NCBI GenBank assembly: GCA_964388235.1
Contig: CAYLXN010000001.1
Coordinates: 15,655-79,654 of the forward strand
Direction: 5' to 3'
Length of the DNA: 64,000 nt
Source of the DNA: an uncultured Candidatus Saccharibacteria bacterium
Lineage (GTDB): Bacteria > Patescibacteriota > Saccharimonadia > Saccharimonadales > Saccharimonadaceae
The notes beneath the pieces are model-generated. The model had not been told where the DNA came from, ran no database searches, and saw nothing but the letters and a program-made list of their open reading frames with translations. The translations under genes and the position numbers were made by a program. This document shows, in pieces, positions 735-63,613 of this stretch; position 1 is the stretch's first letter, and every line of letters starts with the position of its first letter.

Positions 735-792
735 TAGTCATATTTTAATATAAAATACAACTTATAGCAACTATATTATTTAAAATTGAAGT

Positions 793-3700: not shown

Positions 3701-3885
3701 GCTTGGGAAGGGTTTTGACTAGTGTTGCTACTTGTAGTGGTTGATGGTTGACTGCCAGAAGCGTAAGAATTTAGTGAAATGCCATAAAAATAGACAATCG
3801 TTAAGGCTAGTAAGATAGTGCCAATTGCTAAAAAATTAAGTGACTTGTTTTTAATAATTAGAGTAGATGGTTGTTTCTTAGGCAT
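793..3885 (-). CDS. VirB6/TrbL-like polytopic membrane protein, paralog 1 of 5 (1030 aa)
   Basis: It has an N-terminal anchor helix, an S/T-rich linker and a Cys-containing ectodomain. A multi-helix hydrophobic core follows (CAQTGFHAMVTCP..., IIPQFIITAILINISFF, NIIGDN, LALPNTKNL, AIYPIIA) that shares motifs with the four upstream paralogs. It ends in a roughly 330-aa non-hydrophobic tail. The family call is by topology and motif, not by search. Confidence 0.55.
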   Translation of the reverse strand: MPKKQPSTLIIKNKSLNFLAIGTILLALTIVYFYGISLNSYASGSQPSTTTSSNTSQNPSQATPTESDPCEDIVREIVVTANRILDKMENCTDGKDPNFNKDNQPCQDVTYEEWQRLNYMMGLNASIDKGAVDLLKFTDFDPKSIPTNITEDVKKEHDKLVKDYEKQLAKYQTNLKSRWAVVSNITPITSTLKYFKERFNSHTNPTPEDSVFHEDLPFLYFNRYDSADFSFPNQAVDDSFITAIDSGFRDCNTNGLKESKGYPRLNFFNQDQQQKQTITTDDIKNDCLKESGRDEVCKKVLHEGGNESLTEELKQNCLDMFDSKCEIEAIQVTGAWLQPMDCSSLTRLVQQMTDIDAVQKLYDHYKNNNPDWLCMTENEKDAAGYYKDLPDSRYSNDMDYEEMRKKLEEELEDAESACAQTGFHAMVTCPLTRFAGKTADKTFSLLRLALAFPEDALEPDSSLNQAWMISRTYANSLLIIIGLILIVMQMASIGSQQRLSQIIPQFIITAILINISFFLCSLAVNIANIIGDNISIMFSNLADEAFASKSPLADIVDLALKGKFFILAGGAVAVTVAASFFGALSLVLPLLIGALVTAVAALAAIAARHIAIVILIFLSPLAIALMALPNTKNLSSRWLKLFITMLAIYPIIAFLFGFGDLAYKITWSTKASGFRKLISISFAFIPLLIAPKLIIQLISKMPLVSGSIRNLGKLGDKAASSFKRSDLGQSIQQADYQQRRKNVENVRGKIKTGISGVTGRTEKEVVSRIPSLANLPDTESVKKDMSEISEQSERIDKDYAKNFVISNITPTSNKSSESIINHVNPTEVRTILENALTAADGGALTEQQLTISLQIAEKNGYSQEFINNFALEVARKLSAEGSHTEAAMIMYKLNHQGNKGNYLEAGKDPGGFTWTSDPTDTSQDSQKEQAVREYFSGLPTYQVKPSYAKQKDYNGELRKISRDLAGSSLSAEKRADLLYKQKNMRIEQQQFEDLLRTNPTFRNQVEARVRSTTTMPDGKKYVLDRIDDFS

Positions 3886-3891
3886 AGTGAA

Positions 3892-12813: not shown

Positions 12814-12880
12814 AAGCTTTATTATACACGAAAAGCCAAAAATGATTAAGCAAGTTTAAATGATTATACGGGTGGAGAGA

Positions 12881-15580
12881 TTAATTATTTAGAAAATTAT
12901 CCAAGCCGTTTTTTAGTTCTTCAAGCTGAGCCCTAGCTGCTGGCTTGAGGGTTTTAGCCAATTCTTCGGAATTTAATACACTGTTGGCGTTGTCTAGAGT
13001 GCGCCGCATCATATCTCTTGATTCTGGTTTGGTTTTTAAGGCGGCTAAATAATCACCAACCGTTGTTGTAATGGTTTGATTGCCGTCTTTGTATTTAAAA
13101 CTATAGCTTGGGTCTTTAAAAACTGAAGCATATTTTTCCAAACCTTTTGGATCTTCTTTTGATAATCCATCAATTGACAACGACCCTTTGGACATATTGT
13201 CCAAAGCCGCTTTGACGAGTAAATCAGGATCGAATTTACCGTGAGCGATCTGCTCAGGTATGTTTCCGCCATAAACAGAAACCTTATCTGGAATACCATT
13301 AGGATACATACTAGAGCCAACTACTTCGGCCAGAACATGAGCGCTGCCGCCTTCTTTAGTGGCAGCAATAATCTTATCTACATTGGGGGCAAAGGCTATT
13401 TTCATTTGGTTAATAGCGGCTGTTTCTCTAACTAATAAATCATTAACATCAAAGGTTTTATGGGAAACCACCTTATTACCGTTGGCATCATAATCAACAT
13501 GAGAAGCGGTGATAGATCTGTTACCTAAAATTAAGTCCATCTCATCTTCACCTTTTAGGCCATAATGTTCAAACAATTTAGCCATATTTTCAACATTTTC
13601 AGAGTGTTCTTTGCGTTGAGCTGCAATGGCTTTCGATAGAACTCGGTTTTTACCAGCGGTAGTGCCTCTCTCAACACCGGCTGCATCCATCAAGAAGGTC
13701 GTTCTAGGAGCAACACCAAAACTAACTGGCACTTCCATATCCTTGGCTAGTAAGTCATTATAGGTTTGGGCTTTGACTGATTCAGCCACACTAGTGGCGC
13801 TTTCATCGAGTCTTCGCTGTAGGCTGGCTTTGGCGATTTCAACTTCCCAGTTATTATCCAAACTAGACCAATTAACTTCGAATTTCTTAGTGGCTTCATT
13901 ATAGGTAGGTTTCACCTTTCGCAAGGTTTCAGCGCGCAATTCTTGCTCTTTGCGCTCAAGGTGCTGTTTTGAAGCTTCGAGTGAATCGTTGGCGTAGGTA
14001 TTTAATAAACTAGTTTTAAAGGCACGATCGTTGACATTAGCCATGTCTTTTTTAATCTGGGCTTCTCTTATATTGCCGTAAGCTTCGGTTCGTTGAGTGC
14101 TCAGACGTTTTTGCTTGTCAGCAAATTGAGCAATCTTTTGAGTGAAGCCGCGGGCTCGATTTTCATCCGAAATATAGCGAGCCTTGGCTTCGTCCTTCTT
14201 TGAATCAGAGTAATTTTTGACTTGATTTTGGAAGCGATCCAGAAAACCTTTGGATTTATCGTTAACCAAGCCAACTAGTCGATCGCCCGCTTTGACTAAC
14301 ACAGGAGCAACAATCAGTGGCGCTACCCGAACCAATAAGCCTAAAATAACCATCGGAAAACCATCGGCTGTGTGAATAATTACATCGCCAGCTAGTTGTG
14401 AGGCGCCAAATAACAGTGAAAATAAAGGAAACACGGCTAACATATTGATAAATGTTTGGCGCCATTTATCAAATAAATCCTCAGTATTTGGTAAAAGCAT
14501 AGCTACACAAGCGATTGGGGCGATCGCCACTAAAGCTATGATGATCGCTTGTCGGGCTGCCAGGGTAATGATAGCCACAATGACCGCGATAGTGGCGCCA
14601 ACCAAGCTTGGTAATACTAAAAAGAATGATGCAACTACCCCACCCGCTGAGGCAATGGCGAAATTAATACCTGCGATAGCGGTGGCTCCAGACAAGATGG
14701 CGGCAGTGAGGTCTTTCCAATTAAGATCAGCGCTACTTTGACTGCCACTCAACGATTGAACCCGGATATTTTCAAAAAAATCATAAGTATTGTAGCCAAT
14801 GATATTAAAAACATCGATAGTTAATGAGCAGAGATAATAAGACAAATTAACCAAAGCCGCAGCTACAATTAACTTTGGTAGAAGTTTTTTGACTTCATAA
14901 ACCGAAAAGGCGTTGTTGGTCATATAAGAATAAATCAACAGTAAGCCAGCCACTACAAATAGTGAATTGGCAATGCCTCGCATGATGCCCCAAACTTTAA
15001 ACAAAACGGTATTGTTTCCAGTTGGTAATGGTTGAATTTCGACGAACTTGACCACCACATCAAATAGATAATCCATACCTTCGGCTAAGAAGTTACTAAT
15101 TGGACATACCAGCCAGCCAAGAGTTGGGATGTTGCAGGTTTTGGCATAGTCTGATTTGTTTTCATAAGGAGTTAAGTTTTGAGTATTTGAGGGGTTGGTC
15201 GGCCTACCGGTTTGTGGGTCAAGCTTGTAGGTTTGATAATTATAAGCGGTTGAATTTTTTGGATCTTGTTCATCGCTAGGAGCGATCGCTTCCATAGTGC
15301 CATTGTTTTCGTAAGACCAGTACTTTGTACCAGGAGCAAAACTCGTGCCGTCATCTCGGGCTGAAGTTTTCGGTCCAGAAAAGGTTTTGCCCTGATATTC
15401 GATCGAATCGCCCTGCCACTTAATGTCACTCGCTTCGATTGCTAAAGAATTATGATTCAGATAGAACAGATTAAATAAGGTCGCAACAAAAACAATTGCG
15501 ACTCCAATTATAAGTGACCTAATTCTAGTTGAATTAGGAAGCGGTAATTTTGCCTCCAACATACCATGCAATAATATCAT
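12881..15580 (-). CDS. VirB6/TrbL-like polytopic membrane protein, paralog 5 of 5 (899 aa), first gene of the operon
   Basis: It has an anchor helix and an ectodomain of about 130 aa. Core motifs are TCNIPTLGWLVCP, WGIMRGIANSLF, LLIYSYMTNN, LPKLIV, NLSYY, NIIGYN, LLPNTEDL and VFPLFS. The tail is about 430 aa and predicted coiled/charged. The true start may be the Met 6 codons downstream (15562). Confidence 0.55.
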   Translation of the reverse strand: MILLHGMLEAKLPLPNSTRIRSLIIGVAIVFVATLFNLFYLNHNSLAIEASDIKWQGDSIEYQGKTFSGPKTSARDDGTSFAPGTKYWSYENNGTMEAIAPSDEQDPKNSTAYNYQTYKLDPQTGRPTNPSNTQNLTPYENKSDYAKTCNIPTLGWLVCPISNFLAEGMDYLFDVVVKFVEIQPLPTGNNTVLFKVWGIMRGIANSLFVVAGLLLIYSYMTNNAFSVYEVKKLLPKLIVAAALVNLSYYLCSLTIDVFNIIGYNTYDFFENIRVQSLSGSQSSADLNWKDLTAAILSGATAIAGINFAIASAGGVVASFFLVLPSLVGATIAVIVAIITLAARQAIIIALVAIAPIACVAMLLPNTEDLFDKWRQTFINMLAVFPLFSLLFGASQLAGDVIIHTADGFPMVILGLLVRVAPLIVAPVLVKAGDRLVGLVNDKSKGFLDRFQNQVKNYSDSKKDEAKARYISDENRARGFTQKIAQFADKQKRLSTQRTEAYGNIREAQIKKDMANVNDRAFKTSLLNTYANDSLEASKQHLERKEQELRAETLRKVKPTYNEATKKFEVNWSSLDNNWEVEIAKASLQRRLDESATSVAESVKAQTYNDLLAKDMEVPVSFGVAPRTTFLMDAAGVERGTTAGKNRVLSKAIAAQRKEHSENVENMAKLFEHYGLKGEDEMDLILGNRSITASHVDYDANGNKVVSHKTFDVNDLLVRETAAINQMKIAFAPNVDKIIAATKEGGSAHVLAEVVGSSMYPNGIPDKVSVYGGNIPEQIAHGKFDPDLLVKAALDNMSKGSLSIDGLSKEDPKGLEKYASVFKDPSYSFKYKDGNQTITTTVGDYLAALKTKPESRDMMRRTLDNANSVLNSEELAKTLKPAARAQLEELKNGLDNFLNN

Positions 15581-25529: not shown

Positions 25530-26813
25530 TTAATTTGACTTTAATAGCTTTTCGATTTCTTGGCGGTCATTCCAGGGGATTTTCTGACCATCAACAATTC
25601 GGAATTGCTCATGCCCCATGCCGGTGATTAGAACTGTGTCGCCTGCTTCGGCTTGTTTGAGAGCGGCGGTGATAGCTTCGCGGCGATCAGCGATTTCAGT
25701 CATCTTAGCTTTTGTCTCTGTTCGATTGATACCGTCAATGATCATCTGGCGAATCTGATCAGCGTTTTCGGTGTAGTTTTCTTCATCAGTGACGTAAATC
25801 TGATCGGCTAATTTAGCGGCAATTTCCCCCATAATCGGTCGCTTAGCCTGATCACGGTCGCCGCAAGCGCCAAATACCAGATGGATTTGGCCGTCGGTTG
25901 TTTGTCGAGCATAATTAAGTAGACGCTCAAGTGCGTCAGGAGTATGGGCGTAGTCAACGATAATATCTAGATCGTGTTGATTTTTAACTCGTTCCAGTCG
26001 CCCATCAAGTTGCTTTAAGTTAGCAATTCCCTGCTGAATTTGCTTAGGTTTAATTCCCAGCACAATGGCGGCCAGACTAGCTGCCGCGATATTATAAGCG
26101 TTAAATTCGCCAGCCAAGCTAGTGGTTAATTCTAGAGTCTGATTGCCGTAGGTTAATTCTAAGTCCATCTGGGATTTATCAATCTTCAAGATTTTAATTT
26201 GCAAATCAGCGCCCTTATCTCGTCCGTAAGTCAAACTCTTGTTGGCTGGCAAATGCAAGAAATCTTCAGCGTGCGGATCGTCAAGATTTATCAAGCCAAA
26301 CTTGGGATGCATATCCCAAAGTTTCTGCTTGGCTTCCAGATATTTGGCCATTGTTTTGTGATAATCAAGGTGATCTTGAGTTAAGTTAGTAAAAATCGCC
26401 AATTCCAGATCAAAATCAGGGAACTTGTGCTGATCGAGAGCGTGCGACGTTGCCTCAATCAACACATAATCAACTTGTTTATCTTTAGCTTGTTTGAAAA
26501 ACTTTAGGAGCTGTTCGGTGGTAGGGATGGTAGCGTTGAAAGTATTAACTTGACGCTCGCCGGCCATTTCGATAGTGGCGGTACTGAACATGGCGGTGGT
26601 TAAACCAGCTTGTTTGAGAATTGAATTAAGGTAATTAACAGTGGTAGTTTTGCCGTTTGTGCCAGTGACGGCAATGATTTTTAGTCCAGTTGTTGGATGG
26701 CCATATTTCTGGTCAAGTAGTTTTAGTCGACTGCGGCGATAGATTTCCTCTAGCCAGCGAACCAACCGAGCAGGCATCAAGCGACGAACTAATTTAGTTA
26801 ATTTATTTTTCAT
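25530..26813 (-). CDS. murE: Mur ligase family protein, MurE-like, short N-terminus
   Basis: P-loop VTGTNGKTTT and the MurE-typical DYAHTPDALERLL are present. At 427 aa it is shorter than typical MurE. The DNPR position reads EENY. Confidence 0.65.
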   Translation of the reverse strand: MKNKLTKLVRRLMPARLVRWLEEIYRRSRLKLLDQKYGHPTTGLKIIAVTGTNGKTTTVNYLNSILKQAGLTTAMFSTATIEMAGERQVNTFNATIPTTEQLLKFFKQAKDKQVDYVLIEATSHALDQHKFPDFDLELAIFTNLTQDHLDYHKTMAKYLEAKQKLWDMHPKFGLINLDDPHAEDFLHLPANKSLTYGRDKGADLQIKILKIDKSQMDLELTYGNQTLELTTSLAGEFNAYNIAAASLAAIVLGIKPKQIQQGIANLKQLDGRLERVKNQHDLDIIVDYAHTPDALERLLNYARQTTDGQIHLVFGACGDRDQAKRPIMGEIAAKLADQIYVTDEENYTENADQIRQMIIDGINRTETKAKMTEIADRREAITAALKQAEAGDTVLITGMGHEQFRIVDGQKIPWNDRQEIEKLLKSN

Positions 26814-29800
26814 TAGTATCTAGCTGGTAATTCTTTCAGACTAGTGGTTTTGAAGACGTTATTACCAGAGGCAGCTGAGTAGCCAAATAAGTAGGCATCA
26901 GGTCGGAAGTTGAAGATTTCAGCTGGTAAATTAGTGTTATGAATGGTGCCATTAGCCTCTTGGATGGCGTTTTGGTTGGCAACCAGAGCTACATCCGCCC
27001 AAGCTCCATTTATATTGCGCAGTTCAGAGCCAGTATCTGAGAAGCTAGTTCGGCGAGGCTTTAGTTGGTTGGCGATTATTGGACCGTTAACTACTAATTG
27101 TTGAGCGCAGGTTTTAGCGCTTAAGTTACCGCCTTGGTTGCAGGTATTGATTAAAGCATTGCCATTATTATTGTCAGCGACTAACCAAGCGTCAACTTTA
27201 GTTACACCTGGGTCGATGGTAATTAGCCGGTCAGAAATTAAGATTAATTGAGGAATGTCAGCGATTGATCCGATGCCATTTTGTGCATAATTAATATTGT
27301 GTTTAACTTCAATCCCTTCTTTAGCTAGGATAACCACTCGCCTACCTTTAGGAATGTTTAGTGGTTCGGTGATGGTGATCGCACGGTCGGCTTTGATGAT
27401 GAAGAATTTATCATTGAGTGGCTTAGGACCGAGGTTGTTCAGATAAGCATTGTTGAGTCGGAAAGACACGGTCTCTCTTTTGTCTGCGTTGTTTAGGTCA
27501 CTGAAATAACCAGCTATGCTCAGATGAGAGCTGTTAGCTGACCTCAAGTGAGAGATGTTGTTACTGCTGCTGAAGCGACCTAACTTATTATTGACGTTAG
27601 CGAAAGTTAAGCTATTGAAGTAGGGACTGTTAATACCGGTTCGGCGCAAGTAGCCAGAGTTGGTGGCGAAGTTAGTGATCGGGCCGTTGGCTACGGCGTC
27701 ATATTCCGTCCAGCTTCCGTGACGACGACCGCTAATAGTGGTATTGTTGGTTGAAATAGAGCCTGTAGTTAGCACTCCCCCGCCTCGGACCTGTAATTTT
27801 GGTCGCTTATCGATGACGATACAGTTAGGCGTGCCGTGGAACCAAGAATCTCGATTGGCTTTGGTAATTTCTTGATCGTACCATGGTTTGACCGAAACTA
27901 CGAAGCAGATCTTGGTACCAACTGGGATGTTTTCAGGAATTCTGTAGCTGAGGTTATTAGCGATGGCTTTGGATTGCTCGGTGGCAGTCAAGGAAGTGTT
28001 GCCCCCAGTTAATTTATTACACTCAGTAGCTTTAGCTGGACCATTTGGATTGGTGTAAAATTCACAAGCAGCACTGCCCGAACTAAATTTTTTGCCTAAA
28101 TTAGTAGTGATTTGATTGTAATTAATGCCAGAACTTGGGATTACAAATCGATCGAGGCTCCATTGGATTGGCTTAGTTTGAGTAGCGTCTAAGTGAGGAT
28201 AACTACCGTTTTTATCTTTGTTGATAGTTGGTTGATTGATAGTAATTTGTGAACCTGGAGCCGTGCCGCCATCAATACCGACGGTGGTGTCGTTGATATT
28301 GTAATTATACGGCACGTAGGCGCAGACAATACTAGAATTGGCGGTTCCGGTTGGAGAGTAGTTGTTGATTGAATTATACTGAGATGGAGTGATTGATAAC
28401 TGACGGCAGATTCTTTTTCCAACATCCTCTGGCTTAACCTGTATCTGGAGTAGCCAAGTTTGGTTCCTAGTGTCTATGTAGAAGCGGTCCCTAGTCTGGG
28501 AGAAGGATGAATAAGGGTCTTTGATTATAGGTCTGAGTGGGTGGTTTGTGATCAGCTTTGTCTGCTGATTTAGCCGCCAAGAAAAACGAAAAGTTATGTA
28601 TTTATTATTGGCTGAAGCAACGACATCAGATGTTTGGTAGGCTCTTTGGTCGCTTCGACAGCCATCTTGTCCTCCAGATACACTAGGGTCACCGCAAGTA
28701 ACACCTGCGCCTACAATTGAGTTCCATATTTGAGGGTTGCATTGAGATGAGCCTTTAGGGTGCCAGCCTGAAGGGCATGATTCTTCGAATGAAGATGTGT
28801 TGTCCTGACCTTTTCCAGTTTGACAGCACTCGACTTTAGGCTTTGGCGGAATTTGGCAGATTGCGCTGCCAGCAGGAGCGTAATCACCTGTACATGAAGA
28901 CATTTGGTATAAAGGATTGAAGCCACTGTATTTTTTACAGCAACTAACTTTTGGGTTAGCGGGTGGATTTGTAGGATTGGTGGGGGTCGACCCAGCTTCT
29001 CTTCGAACAAAAAGACCATAAAAAGCAAAGGCATTAGCATCTGTGTGCGGGGCGGTTGGTCGTACGTAAACTTTGTCGTAAACGATCGCATCTATAGTGT
29101 TATTACCTGTTCGGAGATGGTTAGTGACGTCTATGTCTTGGCTAATACCACTGGGATTGGCCTGCGCATTTTGAGCTTTATACCAACTACTGCTATTTAC
29201 TCTTATATATGCCATATCATCCATAGCATGACGGAGAATTACTCTTCCTCCATTGGCTTTTGCTGATTCTAAAATTTGCGATGTGAGGTAAAAATTAGTT
29301 TGCAGACTAGTAGAGCCAAAAGAAGTCAGATAATAATGTCCTGCATGACTACCACCGTTGTCAGAGTATGAAGTGTAGCCGCTTATTTTATTTTGATTTT
29401 TGTCTGAAAAAAGAGTTCTATTGATGATTGGAGCCATACCGTTTTTTGATGGGGTGTTTTCGCCAAACGCAAGGTTAGCCATATTTTGACCAAGTCCACT
29501 TGCGTACATCATCGCATTAGCTCCCCTGCAAGGAGTTGCATAGTTGGCGCTAGAGCAATTGAAAAAGGCTGCAAGTTGATAAGGTGCGGCAAAGTTGGCG
29601 GTTAGACTTGTGTAGCCTTTATGACAAATGCTTTTATATCCCATCGTGCTGCTACTGAGGTATAGTTGAACCTTACCGTCTAAGTCTCTATTGCATTGTT
29701 CTAGGCCGTCATTTAAATGGGGGATGGGTGGAGATATACTAGTGCTATAGCGTTGCAGTCTAGCGTAAGTAGGGGCATATGCGCTACCTGAGCCTGTGAT

Positions 29801-29986
29801 TACTAAATCGCCATTAGAATCTTTAAACTGTGTGTATTTGTAACCCGAAGTCGCAAAAGTTGGTGTTTTGCTGAAATCTAAAAAAATCAAGCTATTAGCA
29901 ATGGCTAGTGCTAAAAAGCTACATTTGATTATTTTGCGAATAAAAGTTTTTTTAAGAGTCATGGATTTATCTTTCATTTTTATCAC
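26813..29986 (-). CDS. Large secreted Cys-containing hypothetical protein (1057 aa)
   Basis: It has a signal peptide and a possible PA14-like segment (HAMDDMAYIRVNSS). A P/T/N linker is followed by a CC-containing Cys cluster. Its stop overlaps the murE ATG (TAATG). Confidence 0.6.
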   Translation of the reverse strand: MIKMKDKSMTLKKTFIRKIIKCSFLALAIANSLIFLDFSKTPTFATSGYKYTQFKDSNGDLVITGSGSAYAPTYARLQRYSTSISPPIPHLNDGLEQCNRDLDGKVQLYLSSSTMGYKSICHKGYTSLTANFAAPYQLAAFFNCSSANYATPCRGANAMMYASGLGQNMANLAFGENTPSKNGMAPIINRTLFSDKNQNKISGYTSYSDNGGSHAGHYYLTSFGSTSLQTNFYLTSQILESAKANGGRVILRHAMDDMAYIRVNSSSWYKAQNAQANPSGISQDIDVTNHLRTGNNTIDAIVYDKVYVRPTAPHTDANAFAFYGLFVRREAGSTPTNPTNPPANPKVSCCKKYSGFNPLYQMSSCTGDYAPAGSAICQIPPKPKVECCQTGKGQDNTSSFEESCPSGWHPKGSSQCNPQIWNSIVGAGVTCGDPSVSGGQDGCRSDQRAYQTSDVVASANNKYITFRFSWRLNQQTKLITNHPLRPIIKDPYSSFSQTRDRFYIDTRNQTWLLQIQVKPEDVGKRICRQLSITPSQYNSINNYSPTGTANSSIVCAYVPYNYNINDTTVGIDGGTAPGSQITINQPTINKDKNGSYPHLDATQTKPIQWSLDRFVIPSSGINYNQITTNLGKKFSSGSAACEFYTNPNGPAKATECNKLTGGNTSLTATEQSKAIANNLSYRIPENIPVGTKICFVVSVKPWYDQEITKANRDSWFHGTPNCIVIDKRPKLQVRGGGVLTTGSISTNNTTISGRRHGSWTEYDAVANGPITNFATNSGYLRRTGINSPYFNSLTFANVNNKLGRFSSSNNISHLRSANSSHLSIAGYFSDLNNADKRETVSFRLNNAYLNNLGPKPLNDKFFIIKADRAITITEPLNIPKGRRVVILAKEGIEVKHNINYAQNGIGSIADIPQLILISDRLITIDPGVTKVDAWLVADNNNGNALINTCNQGGNLSAKTCAQQLVVNGPIIANQLKPRRTSFSDTGSELRNINGAWADVALVANQNAIQEANGTIHNTNLPAEIFNFRPDAYLFGYSAASGNNVFKTTSLKELPARY

Positions 29987-31695: not shown

Positions 31696-32649
31696 ATGGT
31701 AAAATTTAAAGTAATGAAGAGGCATTTTTTAGCAAGTGAAGCTTGGTCTAGGTTCCAAAAAACTAAAAATTTGGAGACTATCTTCGCTGAAGGCAAAGGT
31801 TGGTTGTACGCAGCCATTGTTGAGACTGACAAAATTAACCCTCGCTTGTACTGCCCGCGCTCTCCTCAGGTTGAGTCAGTGGAGGCTTTGCAGGCGGCGT
31901 TGAAAGATCTAGAGACCAAAGCCAAGGAAAACGACGTCTGGTTTGTACGGATCGAGCCGGATGGGGCTAATATAAATTCCAAAGATTTAATTGGCTTGGG
32001 CTATCATCGGGTTAAGGATTACCAGCCGAGCCTGACTTGGCTTTTGGATCTCTCCCCTTCTGAAGATGAATTGATTGCTAACATGAAACAAGCTAACCGC
32101 AATTTGTATCGAAACTACCAAAAGAAAGGCTTGGAGTTTTGTGAAGCTGACAGTTCAGACGAAATCGAGCATTTAATCAAGCTTTTCGAAAAAATATCAC
32201 AACATAAAACTGTGAAATTTCACCCCCCAAAATACTTCAGAAATCTGGCCTCTTCTATGATAGATTCGGGTTCAGCCCACTTGTTTCATGTGAAAAAAGA
32301 TGGTAAAATAATAGCCTCAAGTTTAGTTTATGACGACAACACTACCCGCTATTACGCACATGCAGCTAGTGATCACGATCAGCGAAAATTAGGAGCTGGT
32401 TCAGTTCTATTAACTAATATGATCATCGATGCTAAGCGACGAGGTTTGAAAAGCTTTGATTTTTACGGAGTTACTGATAGTGCTAATCCCGATCACCCGT
32501 GGTACGGATTTACTAAGTTTAAGCAAAGTTTTGGTGGTGAGTATTATCGTTATCTTGGCACCTGGGAGAAACCAATCAAGGCACTCCCCTATTGGATTTA
32601 TCGACAAGTTTTAAAATTGACTCGATTACTCAAAAAAATCCGCCCATGA
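31696..32649 (+). CDS. FemAB-family peptidoglycan interpeptide-bridge aminoacyltransferase
   Basis: The C-terminal half (YYAHAASDHDQRKLGAGSVLL...FDFYGV...GFTKFKQSFGG) is typical of FemAB / lipid II aminoacyl transferases. Confidence 0.65.
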   Translation: MVKFKVMKRHFLASEAWSRFQKTKNLETIFAEGKGWLYAAIVETDKINPRLYCPRSPQVESVEALQAALKDLETKAKENDVWFVRIEPDGANINSKDLIGLGYHRVKDYQPSLTWLLDLSPSEDELIANMKQANRNLYRNYQKKGLEFCEADSSDEIEHLIKLFEKISQHKTVKFHPPKYFRNLASSMIDSGSAHLFHVKKDGKIIASSLVYDDNTTRYYAHAASDHDQRKLGAGSVLLTNMIIDAKRRGLKSFDFYGVTDSANPDHPWYGFTKFKQSFGGEYYRYLGTWEKPIKALPYWIYRQVLKLTRLLKKIRP

Positions 32650-56228: not shown

Positions 56229-58364
56229 ATGGATGAAAACGCACAACGCTCAAAATTAATTGAACAAGCCAAGCAAGCTAATAATATTTTAGTGGCGGTT
56301 AGTAGCAATCCAAGCGTCGATGAATTGTCGGCAGCTTTAGGTTTAACATTGATGTTAAACAAAAATGATCGTCGGGCAGTAGCGGTGTTTAGCGGCGAGA
56401 TTCCTGATGTATTGTCGTTTTTGAAGCCAGAAAAAACTTTTGACAAGAACGCTGATGGCTTGCGTGATTTTATCATTTCACTGGATCCGAAAAAGGCTGA
56501 CTACTTGCGCTACAAAGTAGTTGATGACATGGTGCGGATTTTTATTACTCCGAATAACACCGTGATTACCTCTAAAGATTTAGAATTTAGTCAGGGTGAT
56601 TATAATGTCGATATGGTAATTGCCGTTGGGGTGAGTAGTCAAGATCAACTAGATCAGGCTTTGCGTTCGCATGGCCGAATTTTGCATGACGCGGCGGTGT
56701 TCGCGATTAGTATTGGCAACCAAACCAGTAATCTAGGAACTGATAATTGGCACGATGCCAAGGCGGCTTCGTACGCGCAATTGATCGCGACTTTGCCAAG
56801 CTTGATTGATGCAGGTGAGGAAAATAACCAAGATTATGAATCGGCCATGGATAAGCAAGTAGCCAACGCTCTACTCACTGGTTTAGTGGCTACTACCAAT
56901 CGATTTAGTAACAATAAAACCAACGCGGAAATTATGACTTTGGCAGCTGAGCTGATGAAGGCGGGTGCTAATCAACAGTTAATCGCTAATCAATTAGCCA
57001 GTGGTGGCCGAAAGAAGAAAACTGGTTTAAGGACTGATAAACAAGGTCCGCAAAATCAGGTTAGTTTGCGATTAGATAAGAAGCAAGATCAATCATCAGA
57101 AGTCGAAGCTGATAATGACAATGCTTCGAAAAATAATAACCAAAAATCGCAAGTCGATAAGTCTAATAAGAATTCAGACAACAAATCAGTTGACAAAACG
57201 CCAGCTCCCAAAAAAGCCGAGAAGGGAGTGTTGAATATTAAGCAACAGCAGAAGTCATCGCCGAAGGAAGAAGTTAAGCAGGCTGACGCTAAATCAGAAA
57301 TTAAACCAGTTGAGGCCAAAACAACCTCAGAAGAACCCCCAAAAACTAAAGATATTGACCCAGCTAAACTAACCGAGAATGAAAAAGCTTTGGCTCGCAT
57401 GGCATCAGAAGGCAACAAGAATTTCACTGATTTGGATGAATATTCGCGAGAGTATATTGAAACGAAGCGCAACCAAACAGCTGACGATTTAGTGGCTAAA
57501 TTAAAACACCAAGAATTAAAAGTTGATCAACTTGAACCAGATTTTTCGCCGCAACCAGAAGTAGTTGAGCCAGTTCCAGCAACTCAGCCGCCAGTTCAAT
57601 CGCTGCAATCAGAGCCTGTCATGGCTCCGTTAGCACCACCAATGGCGCCTGAAATCAACCCCTTAGGGGAAATGGTGGCTAGCCAACCAGCTCCAATCGA
57701 ACAAAACATTAGTCCAGTGCCAATTGTTGCTGCTAGCGATGAAAAGATTGACCCCAATCAAGCTGCTCAAGAGCTGAATGCCCAAGCTGATCAGCTAACC
57801 GATCGGTTGCAGAAGCAGCTCGAAGCTTCAGAACAAAAATATACCACACCGGCGGCTAATCAACCAGTGGTAGAAGTGCCAAATTTTGCGGGACAACAGG
57901 CGGCGCTAGCCCCCGAAGCAATCAACCCACCAATCGACCAATTTACTCAGCCGGTCGCTAATCCACCAGCTGCTGCACCAACTGAAGTACCAATGCCGCC
58001 AATGCCACCAACATTTGATCCGAATAATCCAGCCATGCCGCCAATGCCGCCAACTTTTGATGGCTTAGAATCAGCAACTTCTCAATCTCAACCCAATCCA
58101 TTTAACCAACTGGTTGATCAAATGAATCAGCCTCCAACTGAGCAAGCTAACCAGATTGATCAGCCAGCTCTAGCAGCTCAAGCTGGGCAAACCGTCCAGC
58201 CCCAGCCCAAGCCTCAATCTGTTGACACCAATCCGTTTTTAGCTGATAGTAAGGCAGCTAGCGAAGTCTTAGGCGGTGGTCAAATGTCAAGCGGCTCAAT
58301 CGCCACACCATCAATTTATCCACAGCCTGACCCTGACAGCTCACAATTTGTTATCCCTGAATAA
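56229..58364 (+). CDS. Hypothetical protein: DHH-like N-terminal domain with degenerate catalytic motifs + long P/Q-rich tail
   Basis: ILVAVSSNPSVDELSAALGL resembles NrnA/DHH motif I but the Asp residues are substituted. No DHH triad was seen. The C-terminal 400 aa are low complexity, including PMPPMPPTFD repeated twice. Confidence 0.45.
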   Translation: MDENAQRSKLIEQAKQANNILVAVSSNPSVDELSAALGLTLMLNKNDRRAVAVFSGEIPDVLSFLKPEKTFDKNADGLRDFIISLDPKKADYLRYKVVDDMVRIFITPNNTVITSKDLEFSQGDYNVDMVIAVGVSSQDQLDQALRSHGRILHDAAVFAISIGNQTSNLGTDNWHDAKAASYAQLIATLPSLIDAGEENNQDYESAMDKQVANALLTGLVATTNRFSNNKTNAEIMTLAAELMKAGANQQLIANQLASGGRKKKTGLRTDKQGPQNQVSLRLDKKQDQSSEVEADNDNASKNNNQKSQVDKSNKNSDNKSVDKTPAPKKAEKGVLNIKQQQKSSPKEEVKQADAKSEIKPVEAKTTSEEPPKTKDIDPAKLTENEKALARMASEGNKNFTDLDEYSREYIETKRNQTADDLVAKLKHQELKVDQLEPDFSPQPEVVEPVPATQPPVQSLQSEPVMAPLAPPMAPEINPLGEMVASQPAPIEQNISPVPIVAASDEKIDPNQAAQELNAQADQLTDRLQKQLEASEQKYTTPAANQPVVEVPNFAGQQAALAPEAINPPIDQFTQPVANPPAAAPTEVPMPPMPPTFDPNNPAMPPMPPTFDGLESATSQSQPNPFNQLVDQMNQPPTEQANQIDQPALAAQAGQTVQPQPKPQSVDTNPFLADSKAASEVLGGGQMSSGSIATPSIYPQPDPDSSQFVIPE

Positions 58365-58365
58365 A

Positions 58366-59022
58366 ATGCAGTTACCTGACAATGGCCTAATTGCTGTCGA
58401 TAAACCGTCCGGCATCTCGAGTTTTGGGGTGGTGGCCAAGGTCAGGTTTCTTCTGCGCCAACAATACGATCGTAAGATAAAAGTTGGCCATACGGGTACG
58501 CTGGATCCGTTTGCTAGCGGCTTGATGCTATTGGTAGTTGGAGATTATTGTAAACAGGCTCAGCAGTACTCGAAACTTGATAAAACCTATCTAGCTAATA
58601 TCGTTTTAGGTAGCCAAACGACAACTTATGATCTTGAGGGGCGACAAAAGTTAATTGCTCGCAATCAGCCGTCGATTAAGCAAATTGAGGCGGTGATTGA
58701 GAATTTTAAGGGTAAAATTGAGCAACAACCGCCCAGTTTCAGTGCGATTAAAATTAATGGCCAGCGAGCCTATAAATTGGCTCGGGCAGGGGCGACTGTG
58801 GAAATGCCGAAACGGCAGGTTGAGATTTATCAGTTGGAAATTATTAATTATAATTACCCGAATTTGCAGCTAAAAGTCAAAGTCTCGTCAGGGACTTATA
58901 TTCGCAGTTTGGCGGTTGATTTGGGTCGTAATTTGGCTTCAGGTGGTTATCTGAGCGAATTGAGGCGGCTAGAAGTTGGCGATTTTAGGGTTGATGATAT
59001 CCAGTTATTAGTTGATTTTTAG
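58366..59022 (+). CDS. truB: tRNA pseudouridine(55) synthase TruB
   Basis: GLIAVDKPSGISSF and the catalytic HTGTLDPFASG are present. The start was moved to the ATG at 58366, since the longer ORF overlaps the upstream gene. Confidence 0.9.
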   Translation: MQLPDNGLIAVDKPSGISSFGVVAKVRFLLRQQYDRKIKVGHTGTLDPFASGLMLLVVGDYCKQAQQYSKLDKTYLANIVLGSQTTTYDLEGRQKLIARNQPSIKQIEAVIENFKGKIEQQPPSFSAIKINGQRAYKLARAGATVEMPKRQVEIYQLEIINYNYPNLQLKVKVSSGTYIRSLAVDLGRNLASGGYLSELRRLEVGDFRVDDIQLLVDF

Positions 59023-59052
59023 TTTCAGCTTGCTATAATAAGCGTAACTATT

Positions 59053-62000
59053 ATGGCATTACCACAAGAAGATTGGTCAGATGATAATTTTAGGCAACGG
59101 CCTAAATTACGGGTGGTGTCGGGGGATAATAATCCTAAGGAAGAGGTGGGAAAAAACCAGCCGCAGACTCCTAATAATGTAGTTAATCTTGATGATTATC
59201 GAGCCCGGCAAGCAGCGGCCTTGAGGCAAAAAGAAAGCCAAGCCGCCAATGATGCTCACAATCCAGGTTCGAGGCGCTACGAGAAAGATTTTGCTTTTGA
59301 CTCGAAGACGGGTAATTTTGATATTGAGGGGCGGGATTCTGAAGATGAAGCTGAGGCTGGTAACTTAGACGAGCAGGGTGATTCAACTGAAACAGCTCGC
59401 CAATTAGAAAATTCACCTCAGAAGCCTGATTCAACAGCAGTTAATTATTCTGATAAATCTCAGTCAGGCGGTGGCGGGGTGAAGGCTGCTGCTGCCAAGG
59501 GGGCGATTGATTATGCACGAGGTGGGGCAAAAAACTTTGGCCCAACTGGCATTTTGATTGCGATTCTGTTTTCGGCTTTGGGTATTGCCACGCCGGCCAC
59601 CATTACTTCAAGTGCGATTATGCAGGTAGCGGAGATCTTTGAAGAGCGGTTTAATACCCAAGCTAGTGGGATTGATAATCGTACTGGAGCCTTGAAGAGA
59701 AATAAATTTGCTTCAAAGATAAAGGAAAAAATTGAAAATTCCAAGCGTAAAAAAGAGCGTTTTGATACGATGTCGAAGGAAGATGTTGATCGCCATGGCA
59801 AGCAGTCGATTGAAGTTCAGACTACTGATGCTGGGACTGAGCTTGATCGAGCTGGCACTATTACCGATATGGAATTTACAGATCGTAACAAACAAGTAAC
59901 TAAAATTACTAATGATGTTGATTTTGACTCGAAGGTGATTAATGGTACCAATTATTCGATTAAAAATTCCAATCACAAAGCTCAAAAAGGCTGGGTCGGA
60001 GGAATGTACGACCGAATTTCGAGCAAGTTATCAACTAAGTTTAAATTAAGTCGATTAGGAATAACTCTGAATAAAAAGGCTGATCCCAATGCTAATAACA
60101 CTTCCGGCACAGGCACCAATAATCAAGGTGGACAGAACAACCAAGGTGGACAGAGTCAATCACCTGTGGATGAAGCTGTAAGTATAAGAGAGGGGATCGA
60201 CCAACAGATTGACAGTCAGGTTAATCCTGACAAATCAGGTGGTGGCTTGAAAGCTGGAAAAATTGATGGTGATACATCTCAATTAGACCCCAATCTTAAA
60301 GATGGCATTGATGCTGGGGTGAAAGATGCATCAGCTCTAGAGACTGAAATTACCGATATGGTGAAACAGGGTGATAAAACTATTGGGCCAAACCAAGGTG
60401 CTGATTTTACTGGCAAATGGGGGAAAACGCTGGATGGTCTTATGGGTGTTGGAGATAAAGTCGTGGCTCTGTGTTCAATCTATAGTACGTTCAGTACAAT
60501 AATGACCGATGCTCGTCTAGCGGTAGCGATTAAGTACGCTCGCTATGCGGCGACTTTCCTTGCTTTTACTGACACAATTAGATTAGGTACAGCCTCGGAG
60601 GAGGTGATTAGTGTTATTGGTAATAACTTAACTTTTAGTGAAGGTAAGGTTGATGCAAATGGCAGTTTAAGCTTGACTAAGAACGGTCTTGATTCTTATG
60701 GTTTTAATTATGCTCAAAAAGGCGAGGCTTCAAATATCCAAAATGATGCCTCAGCACTAAATCATGTTAATGCTCCAACGGGGGCTCCGGCTGCTTTCTT
60801 TGCTGAAGCCAAGGCTTTACTGGGGGCTAGTATGATAAACAAGCTAAACGATGCCTGTGGTTTTGTCGTTGATGTAGGCTCTAATCCTGTCATGAATTTG
60901 GTTGGTATGGGCGTTTCTGTTTTGTCTGCTGCTTCGCCTATTGCAGGGTTTGTAGCCGTTTTGGTAGATGTTGCAGTGGATAGTCTTGTTGGTCAAGCCG
61001 CTTCCGCGTTGGGTAAAAGTATGTTTGCAAAAGCAACTGGCTTGCCAGTAGGTAGCTTTACTAAGGGTGAGGACATGGGCAATGCCTTAGCCTCTGGTGC
61101 AGGCAAAGCGTTCAGTGGAATGGCACAGGCTGGCGGTAATGGTTTGATGACCAAGAAAGCCGCCGTAGCCTTTTTGATCAAGCAAGAAGAATACATTGCT
61201 GAACGAGGTAAGATGATTCGATCAGAGAAAAGTCCATTTGACCTCTCGACTCGGCACACTTTTCTTGGTAGTATTTTTAGCCAGTCGATGCCTTATTTAG
61301 GTAAGACCGCTTCATTGACGACAGCTGTTTCAGCTATTATGAATATGGGTTTTGCATCGATTGGTTCAGTTACGCCAGCTATTAAAGCTCAAGAAGCGGT
61401 GGCTTTACGAAAAAATGTCATGAATGCTTTGGAGCAGTGTCCTGACCCAGAAATGAAAGACGCGAGCGGTGAGTACCGGTTTGCGCTTGATCCGTTTTGT
61501 AATCCTGTTCAGGGCGTGCCAAATGAAGCTCTAAGCGGAGCTGCTAATTTTGATCCAAATGCAGTAGCCAACTTTATCTATACCAAAAATGGACATTATC
61601 AAGCAACTTATGATGCTGCCTCAGATCAATACAAAATTTCTAATGGTGGCAAAAAGCTCAATGGTAAGGTGGTAGATGAAACCAATATTATTAGTTCTTC
61701 GAATAGACCTTTGAAGCAAGACGGGGTTATTTATCAAGTAGCTTTGAAGGGTAGCGGCGAGCCAGCGCCTCGGTACAAGTATGTCATGCCAGTTGATTAT
61801 ACTTCGGCTGAATTTGATCCGACTTGCGATACTGCTAACGACATTCAGTGCGATCTATTGACTCGGCCTGAAGAAGTGAAAAGTGATGGTAAATCGGACA
61901 ACCCACTTTACGATTATTTGCGCAACTGTGTTGATCGGGGAGTTTACCCCTATGTTAATGGTATGAAATCAGATGATGGTGAATGGTTGGATGATGGTAG

Positions 62001-62613
62001 TAGTTGCCTTTTGGACACCGAAGAGAAGCAGAAATTTGCTTTGTATTTTGTTGATGAACGAACACAATGTCTGCTAGATGATGACAAGGAGTGCCAGCTA
62101 GAAGGTGAGGCAAGGAAATTTACTAGTGGGGCGGCTGGTGCTACTGCTGCCGCTGCCGGCTCGTCAGGCCCTGCCACTCTTGACCAAGCTCAAAATTCAG
62201 GTTGGGGTGGTTTTAGTAATGGTCAAATCCCGCCTGACAAGCTAGCACCTATACCATTTAAGACTAATCACAAGTTACATCCTGATGCCGCGGCTTCTTT
62301 AGGTTCTCTTAACGAAGCTTATAAAGCTAAGTTCGGTAAAGATATGTCCTTAACTGATAGTTATCGCAGTTACGATGCGCAAGTAGCTTGCCGCAGCGCT
62401 AAGGGCAGTATTTGTGCTGTACCAGGTACTTCAAATCATGGTTGGGGACTAGCAGTCGACTTTTCAGGTGGCATAAATAACTTTGGTACAGAACAGTATA
62501 AATGGATGAAAGACAATGCTCCGCAATACGGCTGGGTCCATCCACCGTGGGCAGAACCAGGTGGCCGTAATCCTGAAGCTTGGCACTGGGAATACGCTCG
62601 GCCAGTTCAATAG
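59053..62613 (+). CDS. Large membrane-anchored protein (1186 aa) with C-terminal M15/VanY-like zinc peptidoglycan peptidase domain
   Basis: About 165 aa of disordered N-terminus, one TM helix (GILIAILFSALGIATPATI) and a roughly 900-aa region of unknown fold. The C-terminus reads SYRSYDAQ...VPGTSNHGWGLAVDF...YGWVHP...EAWHWEY (H-x6-D...H zinc site). Confidence 0.7.
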   Translation: MALPQEDWSDDNFRQRPKLRVVSGDNNPKEEVGKNQPQTPNNVVNLDDYRARQAAALRQKESQAANDAHNPGSRRYEKDFAFDSKTGNFDIEGRDSEDEAEAGNLDEQGDSTETARQLENSPQKPDSTAVNYSDKSQSGGGGVKAAAAKGAIDYARGGAKNFGPTGILIAILFSALGIATPATITSSAIMQVAEIFEERFNTQASGIDNRTGALKRNKFASKIKEKIENSKRKKERFDTMSKEDVDRHGKQSIEVQTTDAGTELDRAGTITDMEFTDRNKQVTKITNDVDFDSKVINGTNYSIKNSNHKAQKGWVGGMYDRISSKLSTKFKLSRLGITLNKKADPNANNTSGTGTNNQGGQNNQGGQSQSPVDEAVSIREGIDQQIDSQVNPDKSGGGLKAGKIDGDTSQLDPNLKDGIDAGVKDASALETEITDMVKQGDKTIGPNQGADFTGKWGKTLDGLMGVGDKVVALCSIYSTFSTIMTDARLAVAIKYARYAATFLAFTDTIRLGTASEEVISVIGNNLTFSEGKVDANGSLSLTKNGLDSYGFNYAQKGEASNIQNDASALNHVNAPTGAPAAFFAEAKALLGASMINKLNDACGFVVDVGSNPVMNLVGMGVSVLSAASPIAGFVAVLVDVAVDSLVGQAASALGKSMFAKATGLPVGSFTKGEDMGNALASGAGKAFSGMAQAGGNGLMTKKAAVAFLIKQEEYIAERGKMIRSEKSPFDLSTRHTFLGSIFSQSMPYLGKTASLTTAVSAIMNMGFASIGSVTPAIKAQEAVALRKNVMNALEQCPDPEMKDASGEYRFALDPFCNPVQGVPNEALSGAANFDPNAVANFIYTKNGHYQATYDAASDQYKISNGGKKLNGKVVDETNIISSSNRPLKQDGVIYQVALKGSGEPAPRYKYVMPVDYTSAEFDPTCDTANDIQCDLLTRPEEVKSDGKSDNPLYDYLRNCVDRGVYPYVNGMKSDDGEWLDDGSSCLLDTEEKQKFALYFVDERTQCLLDDDKECQLEGEARKFTSGAAGATAAAAGSSGPATLDQAQNSGWGGFSNGQIPPDKLAPIPFKTNHKLHPDAAASLGSLNEAYKAKFGKDMSLTDSYRSYDAQVACRSAKGSICAVPGTSNHGWGLAVDFSGGINNFGTEQYKWMKDNAPQYGWVHPPWAEPGGRNPEAWHWEYARPVQ

Positions 62614-62649: not shown

Positions 62650-62916
62650 ATGATAAAGAAACAAACCAAACAACAGGTGATGGAGCAAACTCAACGTCAC
62701 AAAGACGACGTCGGCTCGCCAGAAGCTCAAGTGGCAGTTTTGACTGATCAGATCAAGACTTTGATCGATCATATCGATCAGAACCACCAAGACCAAAAAG
62801 CCCGCCGTGGGTTGATCCAAGCTGTTGGTAAGCGCAAAAAACTACTCAAATATCTTGAAAAAGTTGACTACGACGCTTACAAGCAGACGATCACCAAATT
62901 AGGTCTACGTAAATAA
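62650..62916 (+). CDS. rpsO: 30S ribosomal protein S15
   Basis: 88 aa (GSPEAQVAVLTDQIKTLIDHI...ARRGLIQAVGKRKKLLKYL). TTGATT-17-TAAGAT ends 6 nt before the ATG. Confidence 0.93.
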   Translation: MIKKQTKQQVMEQTQRHKDDVGSPEAQVAVLTDQIKTLIDHIDQNHQDQKARRGLIQAVGKRKKLLKYLEKVDYDAYKQTITKLGLRK

Positions 62917-62946: not shown

Positions 62947-62975
62947 AAAAATAACACCCCTGATGGGGTGTTTTA
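62947..62975. terminator. Bidirectional terminator after rpsO
   Basis: AACACCCC-tgat-GGGGTGTT flanked by an A-run and a T-run. Confidence 0.65.
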
Positions 62976-63236
62976 GTTTATGGTTAACACGAAAAAATGA
63001 ATAATTTCATTTTTTGGTGTTTTTAAGCAGGCGTTGTACTTGCCTGCTTTGATCGACAAGGGGAGGACAAAAGTGCCATCAGCATCACTGCTGATAAAAG
63101 TGGCTACTTCTAACTTCCCTCCCTTTAAGATTCTTTCTAATTTCAACAGGAGTCTTTTAGACGACCCCAGCTCCTCGAAAGAGATGCTTCTTTCTTTGGA
63201 GGAGATGTTGACTTTAGGGTAAGCTAAGAGATTCAT
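62973..63236 (-). CDS. Hypothetical small protein (87 aa)
   Basis: AT-rich ORF with a 1-nt stop/start overlap with the upstream 125-aa ORF. Confidence 0.4.
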   Translation of the reverse strand: MNLLAYPKVNISSKERSISFEELGSSKRLLLKLERILKGGKLEVATFISSDADGTFVLPLSIKAGKYNACLKTPKNEIIHFFVLTIN

Positions 63237-63613
63237 TAGATCACCTCTTTATCTTCCGTAGGTTTGATCAGTCTTATCCTAATCTTAGCTACGGGGATGG
63301 TTGGCGGGAAGTATTCACTTCCTCTCTTTTTGGCTACAGTATAGAGGCAAACTTCATCTCCCACCTTGTAGCCATCTTCCTCAGGGAAAGAGAGGATAAA
63401 TTGATTATCTTTGTTAATCCAATAAACCCCCTTTTCTTGAGAAATACGACCATTTATTTCCCAAATGGACAAGCCTATTTTGCCAAGTGGCCCAGAAAAA
63501 GTAGAGTCACTTTTGGATAATTCGATCACCACTTTTTCATTTATTCCTGCCTTGATTTCTTTTATTTCTTTTTTTTCTCCTTCTTCTGATAGTCTGACTA
63601 TGAATTCTTTCAT
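63236..63613 (-). CDS. Hypothetical small protein (125 aa)
   Basis: AT-rich ORF with an AAGGAGGGG SD upstream. Confidence 0.5.
   Translation of the reverse strand: MKEFIVRLSEEGEKKEIKEIKAGINEKVVIELSKSDSTFSGPLGKIGLSIWEINGRISQEKGVYWINKDNQFILSFPEEDGYKVGDEVCLYTVAKKRGSEYFPPTIPVAKIRIRLIKPTEDKEVI

Follow-up and report, generated by a model that had tools for sequence, protein, structure and literature searches.

The subject of this report is a gene in a 64,000-nucleotide stretch of DNA (the window) from an uncultured Candidatus Saccharibacteria bacterium, contig CAYLXN010000001.1. The gene, here called the target, is a complete open reading frame (ORF) at 59053-62613 on the plus strand, with an ATG start, encoding 1186 aa plus a stop. 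Its protein belongs to an unnamed family with a conserved, membrane-anchored core of unmatched fold and interchangeable C-terminal domains (heads). The head of the target is a VanY-fold peptidase with an intact M15 active site, active-looking as judged from its motifs. Relatives of the core are encoded next to virB4 in type IV secretion system (T4SS) clusters, and the target represents a paralogous, mostly headless branch of the family outside those clusters. With a probability of about 0.55, family assignment included, we read the target as an envelope-spanning carrier that would hold a peptidase for peptidoglycan outside the membrane, where it would open the wall locally.

Saccharibacteria, like other Patescibacteria, rely on a host cell. 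The Patescibacterial T4SS cluster is the first T4SS demonstrated to be essential to its carrier bacterium's survival, and the large gene after virB4 in that cluster has so far been annotated only as hypothetical. The virB4-downstream 'peptidase' is already noted in a supplementary annotation and in one survey sentence; the core family, its unmatched fold, the head repertoire, the non-T4SS branch and the shared peptidase cassette appear undescribed in the literature searched. We define the family, demonstrate that a paralogous branch of it occupies a conserved housekeeping neighbourhood and not the T4SS cluster, and show that both carriers can bear the same peptidase within one genome. The core profile can be used to annotate hundreds of 'hypothetical' proteins, and the results as a whole suggest constructs and mutants for asking how an epibiont passes two cell walls.

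The peptidase head and its carrier

An initial annotation, made from the sequence alone, had given the ORF limits and the place between truB and rpsO, both borne out by the ORF list and Pfam. It had also read the end of the protein as an M15/VanY-like peptidase with its zinc ligands and proposed a profile search of the VanY and Peptidase_M15 families. In that search Pfam VanY (PF02557) scores 48 bits over aa 1072-1182, its cut-off being 25, and profile positions 1-130 of 132 are covered. The motifs YRSYDAQ (R1105), PGTSNHGWGLAVD (H1129-x6-D1136) and EAWHWEY (E1175, H1178) align with those of solved VanY-B (5hnm, 6a6a) and YodJ/LdcB (4ox3, 4ox5). The zinc ligands (H-x6-D and the distal H) are all present, as are E-x-x-H with its catalytic Glu and YRSY with its conserved Arg. 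AlphaFold2 (AF2) models the head, which makes up the C-terminal 12% of the 1186-aa protein, with a predicted local distance difference test score (pLDDT) of 89-96, and Foldseek against PDB matches it to BaLdcB (4mph), VanY-B, VanXYg and LdcB at probability 1.0. Fold and catalytic motifs are those of the LAS-superfamily M15B enzymes of LdcB/VanY type (BaLdcB 4MPH, SpLdcB 4OX5, YodJ 4OX3, VanY-B 5HNM). Those enzymes are small, about 180-270 aa, and have either a signal peptide or one anchor, whereas in the target the domain is mounted on a 1186-aa carrier.

Features of the target are as follows, all on the plus strand, with the evidence in brackets:

59053-59547 (+), cytoplasmic N-terminal tail, aa 1-165 (pLDDT, hydropathy, family conservation)
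59548-59604 (+), signal-anchor transmembrane (TM) helix, aa 166-184, GILIAILFSALGIATPATI (Kyte-Doolittle)
59605-60087 (+), juxtamembrane helices and small alpha/beta domain, part of the core, aa 185-345 (pLDDT 89-97, profile hits)
60088-60438 (+), low-complexity G/N/Q/D-rich linkers, aa 346-462 (15% identity to ortholog)
60439-61428 (+), helical core, aa 463-792 (profile hits centre here; pLDDT mostly 90-97)
60853-61053 (+), hydrophobic Gly/Ala-rich region, family-conserved, aa 601-667 (hydropathy)
61429-62118 (+), Cys-rich domain with 8 Cys, aa 793-1022 (Cys positions, family conservation, pLDDT)
62119-62199 (+), flexible Ala/Gly/Ser linker, aa 1023-1049 (pLDDT < 50 at aa 1025-1049)
62200-62610 (+), VanY/LdcB-type M15 zinc peptidase head, aa 1050-1186 (Pfam, alignments, Foldseek, AF2)
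62365-62367 (+), codon of R1105
62437-62439 (+), codon of H1129
62458-62460 (+), codon of D1136
62575-62577 (+), codon of E1175
62584-62586 (+), codon of H1178

Among the relatives listed from a search of 5.8 billion proteins, the nearest to the head are small (~150-250 aa) M15 peptidases at 50-59% identity, and those with names are almost all from Actinomycetota (Cellulomonas, Blastococcus, Klenkia, Actinotalea, Microbacterium, Streptomonospora, Jiangellaceae). The best phage matches are endolysins, from Clavibacter phages CN77/CN1A (identity 43%, E 2e-20) and from phages of Curtobacterium and Microbacterium. CN77 Lys is lytic by experiment and specific for Clavibacter. These Microbacteriaceae phage endolysins and small actinobacterial M15 peptidases are the closest head relatives found outside the protein's own family, but the likeness is limited to the catalytic domain: they are soluble, have wall-binding domains of their own and no carrier. 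Cultivated Saccharibacteria grow on Actinobacteria, as stated in PMC10633639. The actinobacterial and phage affinity of the head is suggestive of a link to the host wall, not decisive. Elsewhere in the window, 31696-32649 (+) encodes a FemAB-family protein, which points to an interpeptide bridge in the organism's own peptidoglycan and bears on the substrate of its wall peptidases.

AF2 with a 2-sequence alignment gave a pLDDT of 29; the model used is based on 77 family members and has a mean pLDDT of 72.5, a predicted template modelling score (pTM) of 0.69 and 438 residues with pLDDT of at least 90. It shows confident helices and a small alpha/beta domain at aa 181-345, then long helices and a helical bundle at aa 463-792. 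The latter stretch, which carries GEDMGNALASG...GGNG and SPFDLSTRHTFLGSI, is conserved best in the family; near-invariant or invariant columns make up the family motifs GED.GNA..SG, GGN.P(L/M)T and SPFD..(T)RHT..GSI. In the Cys-rich domain C796, C816, C959 and C985 are conserved family-wide, and pLDDT is 86-98 outside a branch-specific insert at about aa 851-950 (column occupancy 0.23). All 12 Cys of the target are kept in its ortholog P0001 (family proteins are numbered P and loci L), 10 of them lying between aa 796 and 1121. An acidic Cys-containing region had been noted from the sequence, and aa 901-1000 indeed have a net charge of -11 and 4 Cys. The ~850-aa ectodomain is mostly helical and probably disulfide-stabilised.

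The core as a whole has no credible match in Pfam, NCBIfam or PHROGs, a PDB profile search with it returned nothing, and aa 185-345 match neither Pfam nor PDB. Foldseek against PDB at E<=10, with PrgK (8S0U) in the library, matched the head alone, as did Foldseek against viral models (BFVD). The initial annotation had described some 900 aa of unknown fold and proposed AlphaFold and Foldseek for the middle region. The proposed run gave a model and no core match, in agreement with that description; what the description had missed is that the region is a conserved family core with 673 representatives. Kinship of the core with the VirB6-like giant proteins of the same loci was considered and rejected (hhalign probability 0.4%; no Pfam TrbL hit in the target).

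The N-terminal tail is mostly disordered, with pLDDT < 50 at aa 1-39, 81-111 and 121-144 and a helix at aa 46-80; residues N70 (NPG), F80 and R116 are conserved in the family. By hydropathy the target has neither a signal peptide nor a hydrophobic N-terminal segment. These results agree with the disordered N-terminus of the initial annotation (low pLDDT over the first ~145-165 aa, no signal peptide), and its membrane anchoring is supported by the strong hydrophobic helix at aa 166-184. Over 19 residues the Kyte-Doolittle mean of that helix is 2.07; K/R flank it on the N-side and acidic residues (E) on the C-side, and family-mean hydropathy peaks at the anchor column (occupancy 0.97). The same annotation had counted one TM helix. 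The anchor stands, but the single-TM count does not, as a second hydrophobic region at aa 601-667 is conserved in the family. There the Kyte-Doolittle profile peaks at 2.02 (aa 620), family-mean hydropathy peaks too, and pLDDT drops to 32-44 at aa 610-642. The region is 57-94 aa long in the family, rich in Gly, Ala and Ser, with a central G/P turn in the inspected examples, and is probably a helical hairpin, whether membrane-embedded, re-entrant or buried.

K/R before the first TM helix (TM1) and acidic residues after it indicate an N-in, C-out topology. The modal number of hydrophobic peaks per family member is three, which fits an anchor plus a hairpin and leaves the C-terminal part outside. 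The head is therefore predicted to be extracytoplasmic, with type-II (N-in) anchoring, because of the positive-inside TM1, the three-peak mode, the conserved Cys and the wall-hydrolase heads found across the family.

A family with exchangeable heads and two genomic contexts

Family search. Word-indexed searches gave one close ortholog only, whether the query was the full protein or the 77-sequence alignment, and a scan of a genome collection with very narrow patterns gave one locus only. The family came to light only by exhaustive HMMER search, for which the head was removed and aa 160-1045 of the target and P0001 were used as the profile. This retrieved 673 cluster representatives at E<=1e-3, of which 347 reach E<=1e-10; most of the representatives are 800-1300 aa long, and no functional name occurs among the cluster-member names. 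The conserved part of the family runs from the TM anchor through the helical region to the Cys-rich domain, ending near aa 1010. To date the family has been traced only to Saccharibacteria/Patescibacteria-type loci.

Heads. The C-terminal head is interchangeable, being M23, VanY, CHAP, C39-like, glucosaminidase, EEP or none. Pfam heads among 44 members are Peptidase_M23 (17), VanY (9), Exo_endo_phos (EEP; 5), CHAP (2), Peptidase_C39_2 (2) and Glucosaminidase (1). P0002, encoded in the same slot as the target, has a C39-like head rather than VanY, and the next-nearest relatives (P0003-P0007, P0010, P0011) end after the Cys-rich domain and are headless. P0047 (L058, 3970-7692) has Exo_endo_phos together with M23; an EEP nuclease/phosphatase head does not act on peptidoglycan and hints that the carriers can present other kinds of enzyme. 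Two shorter VanY-headed members, of 896 and 929 aa (L012, 82-2772; L014, 830-3619), lie in a different context; genes resembling pyrB and dihydroorotase, which are unusual in reduced Patescibacteria, are found near the one in L014.

T4SS context. The family gene (X) is found directly downstream of VirB4 for P0027, P0100 and P0047, in the order PrgI, TraC-like, VirB4, X (L007, L008, L058); in L007 and L058 the cluster adjoins dnaN/dnaA. The head-less profile retrieves P0027 (E 3e-38) and P0100 (E 8e-26). Among metagenome loci retrieved by the core motifs, 37 of 45 have the family gene directly downstream of virB4, a count that includes many near-identical genomes, and the family profile matches the metagenome virB4-downstream ORFs (within L016-L056) at E of about 1e-170 to 1e-183. 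Relative to VirB4-linked members the target has a longer N-terminal tail (165 aa versus ~90) and the ~100-aa insert in the Cys-rich domain. The T4SS partnership suggested by the initial annotation thus holds for relatives of the core but not for the target itself, which is not virB4-adjacent and sits between truB and rpsO; no PrgI, TraC-like or VirB4 homolog is present in the whole 64-kb window.

The truB...rpsO context. Ortholog P0001 (48-51% identical) fills the same truB-X-rpsO-...-pnp slot, so the target is a real conserved gene and not a chance ORF; P0002 (30% identical to the target) also lies in a truB-X-rpsO-pnp slot. The initial annotation had the gene interrupting the truB-rpsO block. 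A recent insertion is contradicted: all related Saccharibacteria loci recovered here (L001-L005) have the slot filled, and L013 has a four-gene block in it, in the order DHH-like, truB, ..., secreted giant, X, MurL, Mur ligase, rpsO, pnp. Parts of the L013 block are seen in L015, L009, L010, L011 and L006. The target gene is an old resident of the truB...rpsO neighbourhood. In relatives the family gene (and MurL) lies between the secreted giant and the Mur ligase; in the window the homologs of these two flanking genes lie 30 kb from the target, only X is left between truB and rpsO, and MurL was not found. The secreted giant has 1057 aa, bears a signal peptide and is encoded directly upstream of the Mur ligase.

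A neighbour-joining tree of the core, which serves as a rough guide only, makes the target, P0001 and P0002 the sister group of the headless Mur-linked clade and sets them apart from the VirB4-linked clades. The target gene evolves much faster than the genes next to it. When the window is compared with the L001/L002 genome, X has 51.5% identity, against 76.5% for truB, 81.8% for polA and 92% for rpsO, and PNPase is 100% identical over its first 59 aa. Within X, compared with P0001, the linkers are the least conserved (15%) and the head the most (72%).

Features of the window that belong to these two contexts are:

3-737 (-), second family member, N-terminal 245 aa, cut by the window edge (family profile E 3e-30)
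793-15580 (-), five paralogous giant ORFs, VirB6/TrbL-like (BLAST, weak TrbL hit)
25530-26813 (-), Mur ligase
26813-29986 (-), secreted Cys-rich giant

A second family copy. The fragment at 3-737 is 100% identical over 244 aa to P0125, a 931-aa protein with a VanY domain at its end. The fragment directly follows, on the downstream side, the five giant ORFs (1030, 672, 892, 1413 and 899 aa), which share a ~300-aa TrbL/VirB6-like domain; 5897-8575 gives the weak TrbL hit, and all five match by BLAST the giant upstream of PrgI/TraC-like/VirB4 in L007. The 672-aa ORF (3892-5910) was considered as a VirB4 and rejected, as it has no similarity to it and is a VirB6-like paralog. L057, whose giants are likewise homologous to these five, has the same layout, with TrbL_3 giants, a family member and then, further on, PrgI and TraC-like. 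A link to the VirB6-like locus had been proposed as a check in the initial annotation, and it is found in the window itself, where the second family member follows the giants. The five giants and the second member are part of a T4SS-type locus, and the remaining genes of the cluster probably lie beyond the left window edge.

P0125, which we assume to be from this genome or a near-identical one, shares with the target a last 148 aa that are 85% identical, starting at the linker SGPATLDQAQNSGWGG near aa 1038, which marks the boundary of the head cassette. The cores are ~30% identical. For comparison, the target and its ortholog P0001 are 73% identical in the head and 48% in the core. Two divergent carriers thus appear to bear essentially the same peptidase cassette, and the contrast between 85% identity in the head and ~30% in the core implies exchange or conversion of the head between the two paralogs.

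Known systems. The same gene order as in the VirB4-linked loci has been published for Ca. Southlakia epibionticum ML1, with SEML1_0010 (PrgI), SEML1_0008 (VirB4-like), SEML1_0007 and SEML1_0006 (lysozyme-like), all of them essential. SEML1_0007 adjoins SEML1_0008, has 1113 aa, is annotated as hypothetical with a 'Hedgehog/DD-peptidase' at aa 951-1105, and is essential for epibiotic growth of Southlakia by transposon sequencing (Tn-seq). A survey of Patescibacteria T4SS reports 'peptidase and lysozyme homologs immediately downstream of virB4' as essential, and a recent review likewise describes the Patescibacterial T4SS as essential. The virB4-downstream 'peptidase' of this SEML1_0007-like kind has the same core by profile, as shown for P0027, P0100, P0047 and L016-L056, and the same layout as the target (N-terminal tail, TM anchor, ~850-aa core, C-terminal wall hydrolase). 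The head of SEML1_0007 is of the same kind too, and the target's genome itself has a copy of this type, whose head is 85% identical to that of the target. The target differs in having no virB4, PrgI or TraC-like neighbours and in falling into a separate clade of the core tree.

In outline the target also resembles the VirB1-like hydrolases of Gram-positive T4SS (PrgK of pCF10, TraG of pIP501, TcpG, CwlT, Orf14 of Tn916), with a cytoplasmic N-terminal part, a TM anchor and hydrolase domain(s), extracellular in those proteins and predicted to be so in the target. Its family is also encoded beside virB4 in monoderm-type T4SS, and some members carry LytM/M23, CHAP or glucosaminidase heads as PrgK and TraG do. 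However, PrgK and the SLT and muramidase domains show no sequence or fold match to the target, M15/VanY is not among the listed VirB1-like domains (SLT, MUR, CHAP, LytM) while VanY is the only head detected in the target, and the VirB1-like proteins have no counterpart of the ~850-aa core.

Function and rival explanations

In the reading we favour, the carrier would hold a zinc peptidase outside the membrane, within or beyond the epibiont wall. The peptidase would cleave peptidoglycan stem peptides locally, and cleavage would open or trim the sacculus around an envelope-spanning structure or at a contact site. The target would be a paralog, from a sister branch, of the virB4-downstream T4SS 'peptidase', carrying the same cassette as the T4SS-locus copy of its genome. 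Enzymatic activity, the wall-opening role and the wall that is cut are what we infer. The wall may be the epibiont's own or that of the host; an opening at the epibiont's own envelope or apparatus is favoured with the same confidence as the reading as a whole, family assignment included.

Several observations weigh against this. VanY/LdcB enzymes are typically carboxypeptidases that trim stem peptides and do not open the wall. The target's branch sits by MurL, the Mur ligase and the secreted giant, mostly headless and outside T4SS clusters, so the primary job of the core cannot be peptidoglycan hydrolysis and may be unrelated to T4SS. The 37 VirB4-linked loci include many near-identical genomes, as said above, and family membership of SEML1_0007 rests on position, length and head type, not on sequence. 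The target itself has only two strong hydrophobic peaks (aa 166, 620), and a naive two-TM reading of it would put the head in the cytoplasm.

The carrier could instead be a lytic weapon directed at the host, projecting the peptidase to actinobacterial host peptidoglycan at the attachment site for access or anchoring. The nearest named relatives of the head, small Actinomycetota M15 peptidases at 50-59% identity, point that way, as do the endolysins of Clavibacter, Curtobacterium and Microbacterium phages, that of CN77 being lytic. So do the swap of heads at the same locus between close orthologs (VanY versus C39-like), the fast evolution (51.5% identity versus 76-92% in neighbours) and the essentiality of T4SS-linked paralogs for epibiotic growth. 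The N-terminal anchor, however, tethers the protein to the epibiont membrane, and its ~1000-aa ectodomain may or may not reach the host wall; headless orthologs exist, the ORF list has no evident immunity gene next to the target, and the actinobacterial likeness may just reflect the similar Gram-positive-type wall of Saccharibacteria. We regard this alternative as possible but rather unlikely. Slightly more tentative still is a reading akin to polymorphic effectors, in which a Patescibacteria-specific carrier of new fold would span the epibiont envelope, engage a membrane with its conserved hydrophobic Gly/Ala-rich region and present interchangeable 'warheads' (M23, M15, CHAP, C39-like, glucosaminidase, EEP) to the host envelope. 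Cassettes would move between carriers, the 85%-identical head on two ~30%-identical carriers of this genome being an example, and the truB-rpsO copy would be a second, T4SS-independent route, possibly with the secreted giant.

A role without secretion or host contact, as a housekeeping LdcB/VanY-like LD- or DD-carboxypeptidase of the own wall or as a scaffold of wall growth or division, with an unusually large domain for an anchor, would suit the closest solved structures (LdcB/VanY carboxypeptidases), the conserved promoter of the gene and its place among housekeeping genes, the MurL and Mur ligase next to sister-branch members, and a base composition equal to that of the surrounding genome. 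We hold it improbable, since for a trimming enzyme neither a C39-like replacement at the same locus nor absence from the sister clade would be expected, the family is a fixed component of T4SS clusters, the target gene diverges faster than its neighbours, and a secretion-related use common to both copies is suggested by the identical head of the one at the T4SS locus.

Two further explanations are contradicted. Helices and hydrophobic segments followed by a C-terminal hydrolase do recall the outline of some tape-measure proteins, and the head resembles phage endolysins, so the gene might be taken for a remnant of a prophage or conjugative element, either tape-measure-like or as a hydrolase borne on an integrative and conjugative element (ICE), between truB and rpsO. 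No phage, integrase or relaxase genes surround the target, though, guanine-cytosine (GC) content and skew are continuous, and synteny (the slot is kept in L001-L005 and L013) also rules the idea out. The phage tail and tape-measure analogy drawn in the initial annotation finds nothing to rest on in PHROGs (one weak hit, to a family without known function) or Foldseek (tape-measure rows at probability <= 0.01), and we consider such an origin very improbable. The least probable explanation is a glycopeptide-resistance VanY D,D-carboxypeptidase. VanY-B entries are the best PDB sequence matches, but the NCBIfam models NF000473 and NF000472 reach 29.4 and 19.9 bits where the cut-offs are 400 and 425, no vanH/A/X or vanRS lies nearby, and a 1000-aa carrier is foreign to VanY proteins.

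The gene, its promoter and its neighbours

Features flanking the target are:

58366-59022 (+), truB, upstream neighbour (PF01509, E 5e-50)
59012-59039 (+), promoter-like site TTGATT-16 nt-TGcTATAAT, extended -10 (consensus scan)
62650-62916 (+), rpsO, downstream neighbour (PF00312, E 6e-29)
62953-62972, terminator-like hairpin, bidirectional, 3' of rpsO

The likely start of truB is the ATG at 58366, and the listed ORF opens at the GTG at 58276; pnp starts at 63824 and continues past the window edge. GC content and GC skew of the target gene are continuous with its flanks, and its base composition is that of the surrounding genome.

The gene had been given a promoter of its own in the initial annotation, and the consensus match (TTGATT-16-TGCTATAAT) is real and conserved in orthologous loci: L001/L002 keep the -10 element at the same distance from the ATG, and L003 has a TATAAT-like element. 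The site ends 13 nt 5' of the target ATG, and no Shine-Dalgarno sequence is present between the promoter-like site and the ATG (59012-59052). With the -10 only 13 nt from the ATG and no Shine-Dalgarno sequence, the target mRNA would be nearly leaderless.

Two small ORFs of 87 and 125 aa lie on the minus strand between rpsO and pnp (62973-63613). The 125-aa ORF has no Pfam match, and L001 has a 108-aa minus-strand ORF at the same place. Upstream of truB, 56229-58364 (+) encodes a 711-aa protein without a Pfam match, homologous to the gene that precedes truB in L013 and L003; in Southlakia its position is held by SEML1_0073, which has a 'DHH phosphoesterase' fold. The C-terminal half of the 711-aa protein is long, low-complexity and P/Q/A-rich, and its end overlaps the GTG-started truB ORF.

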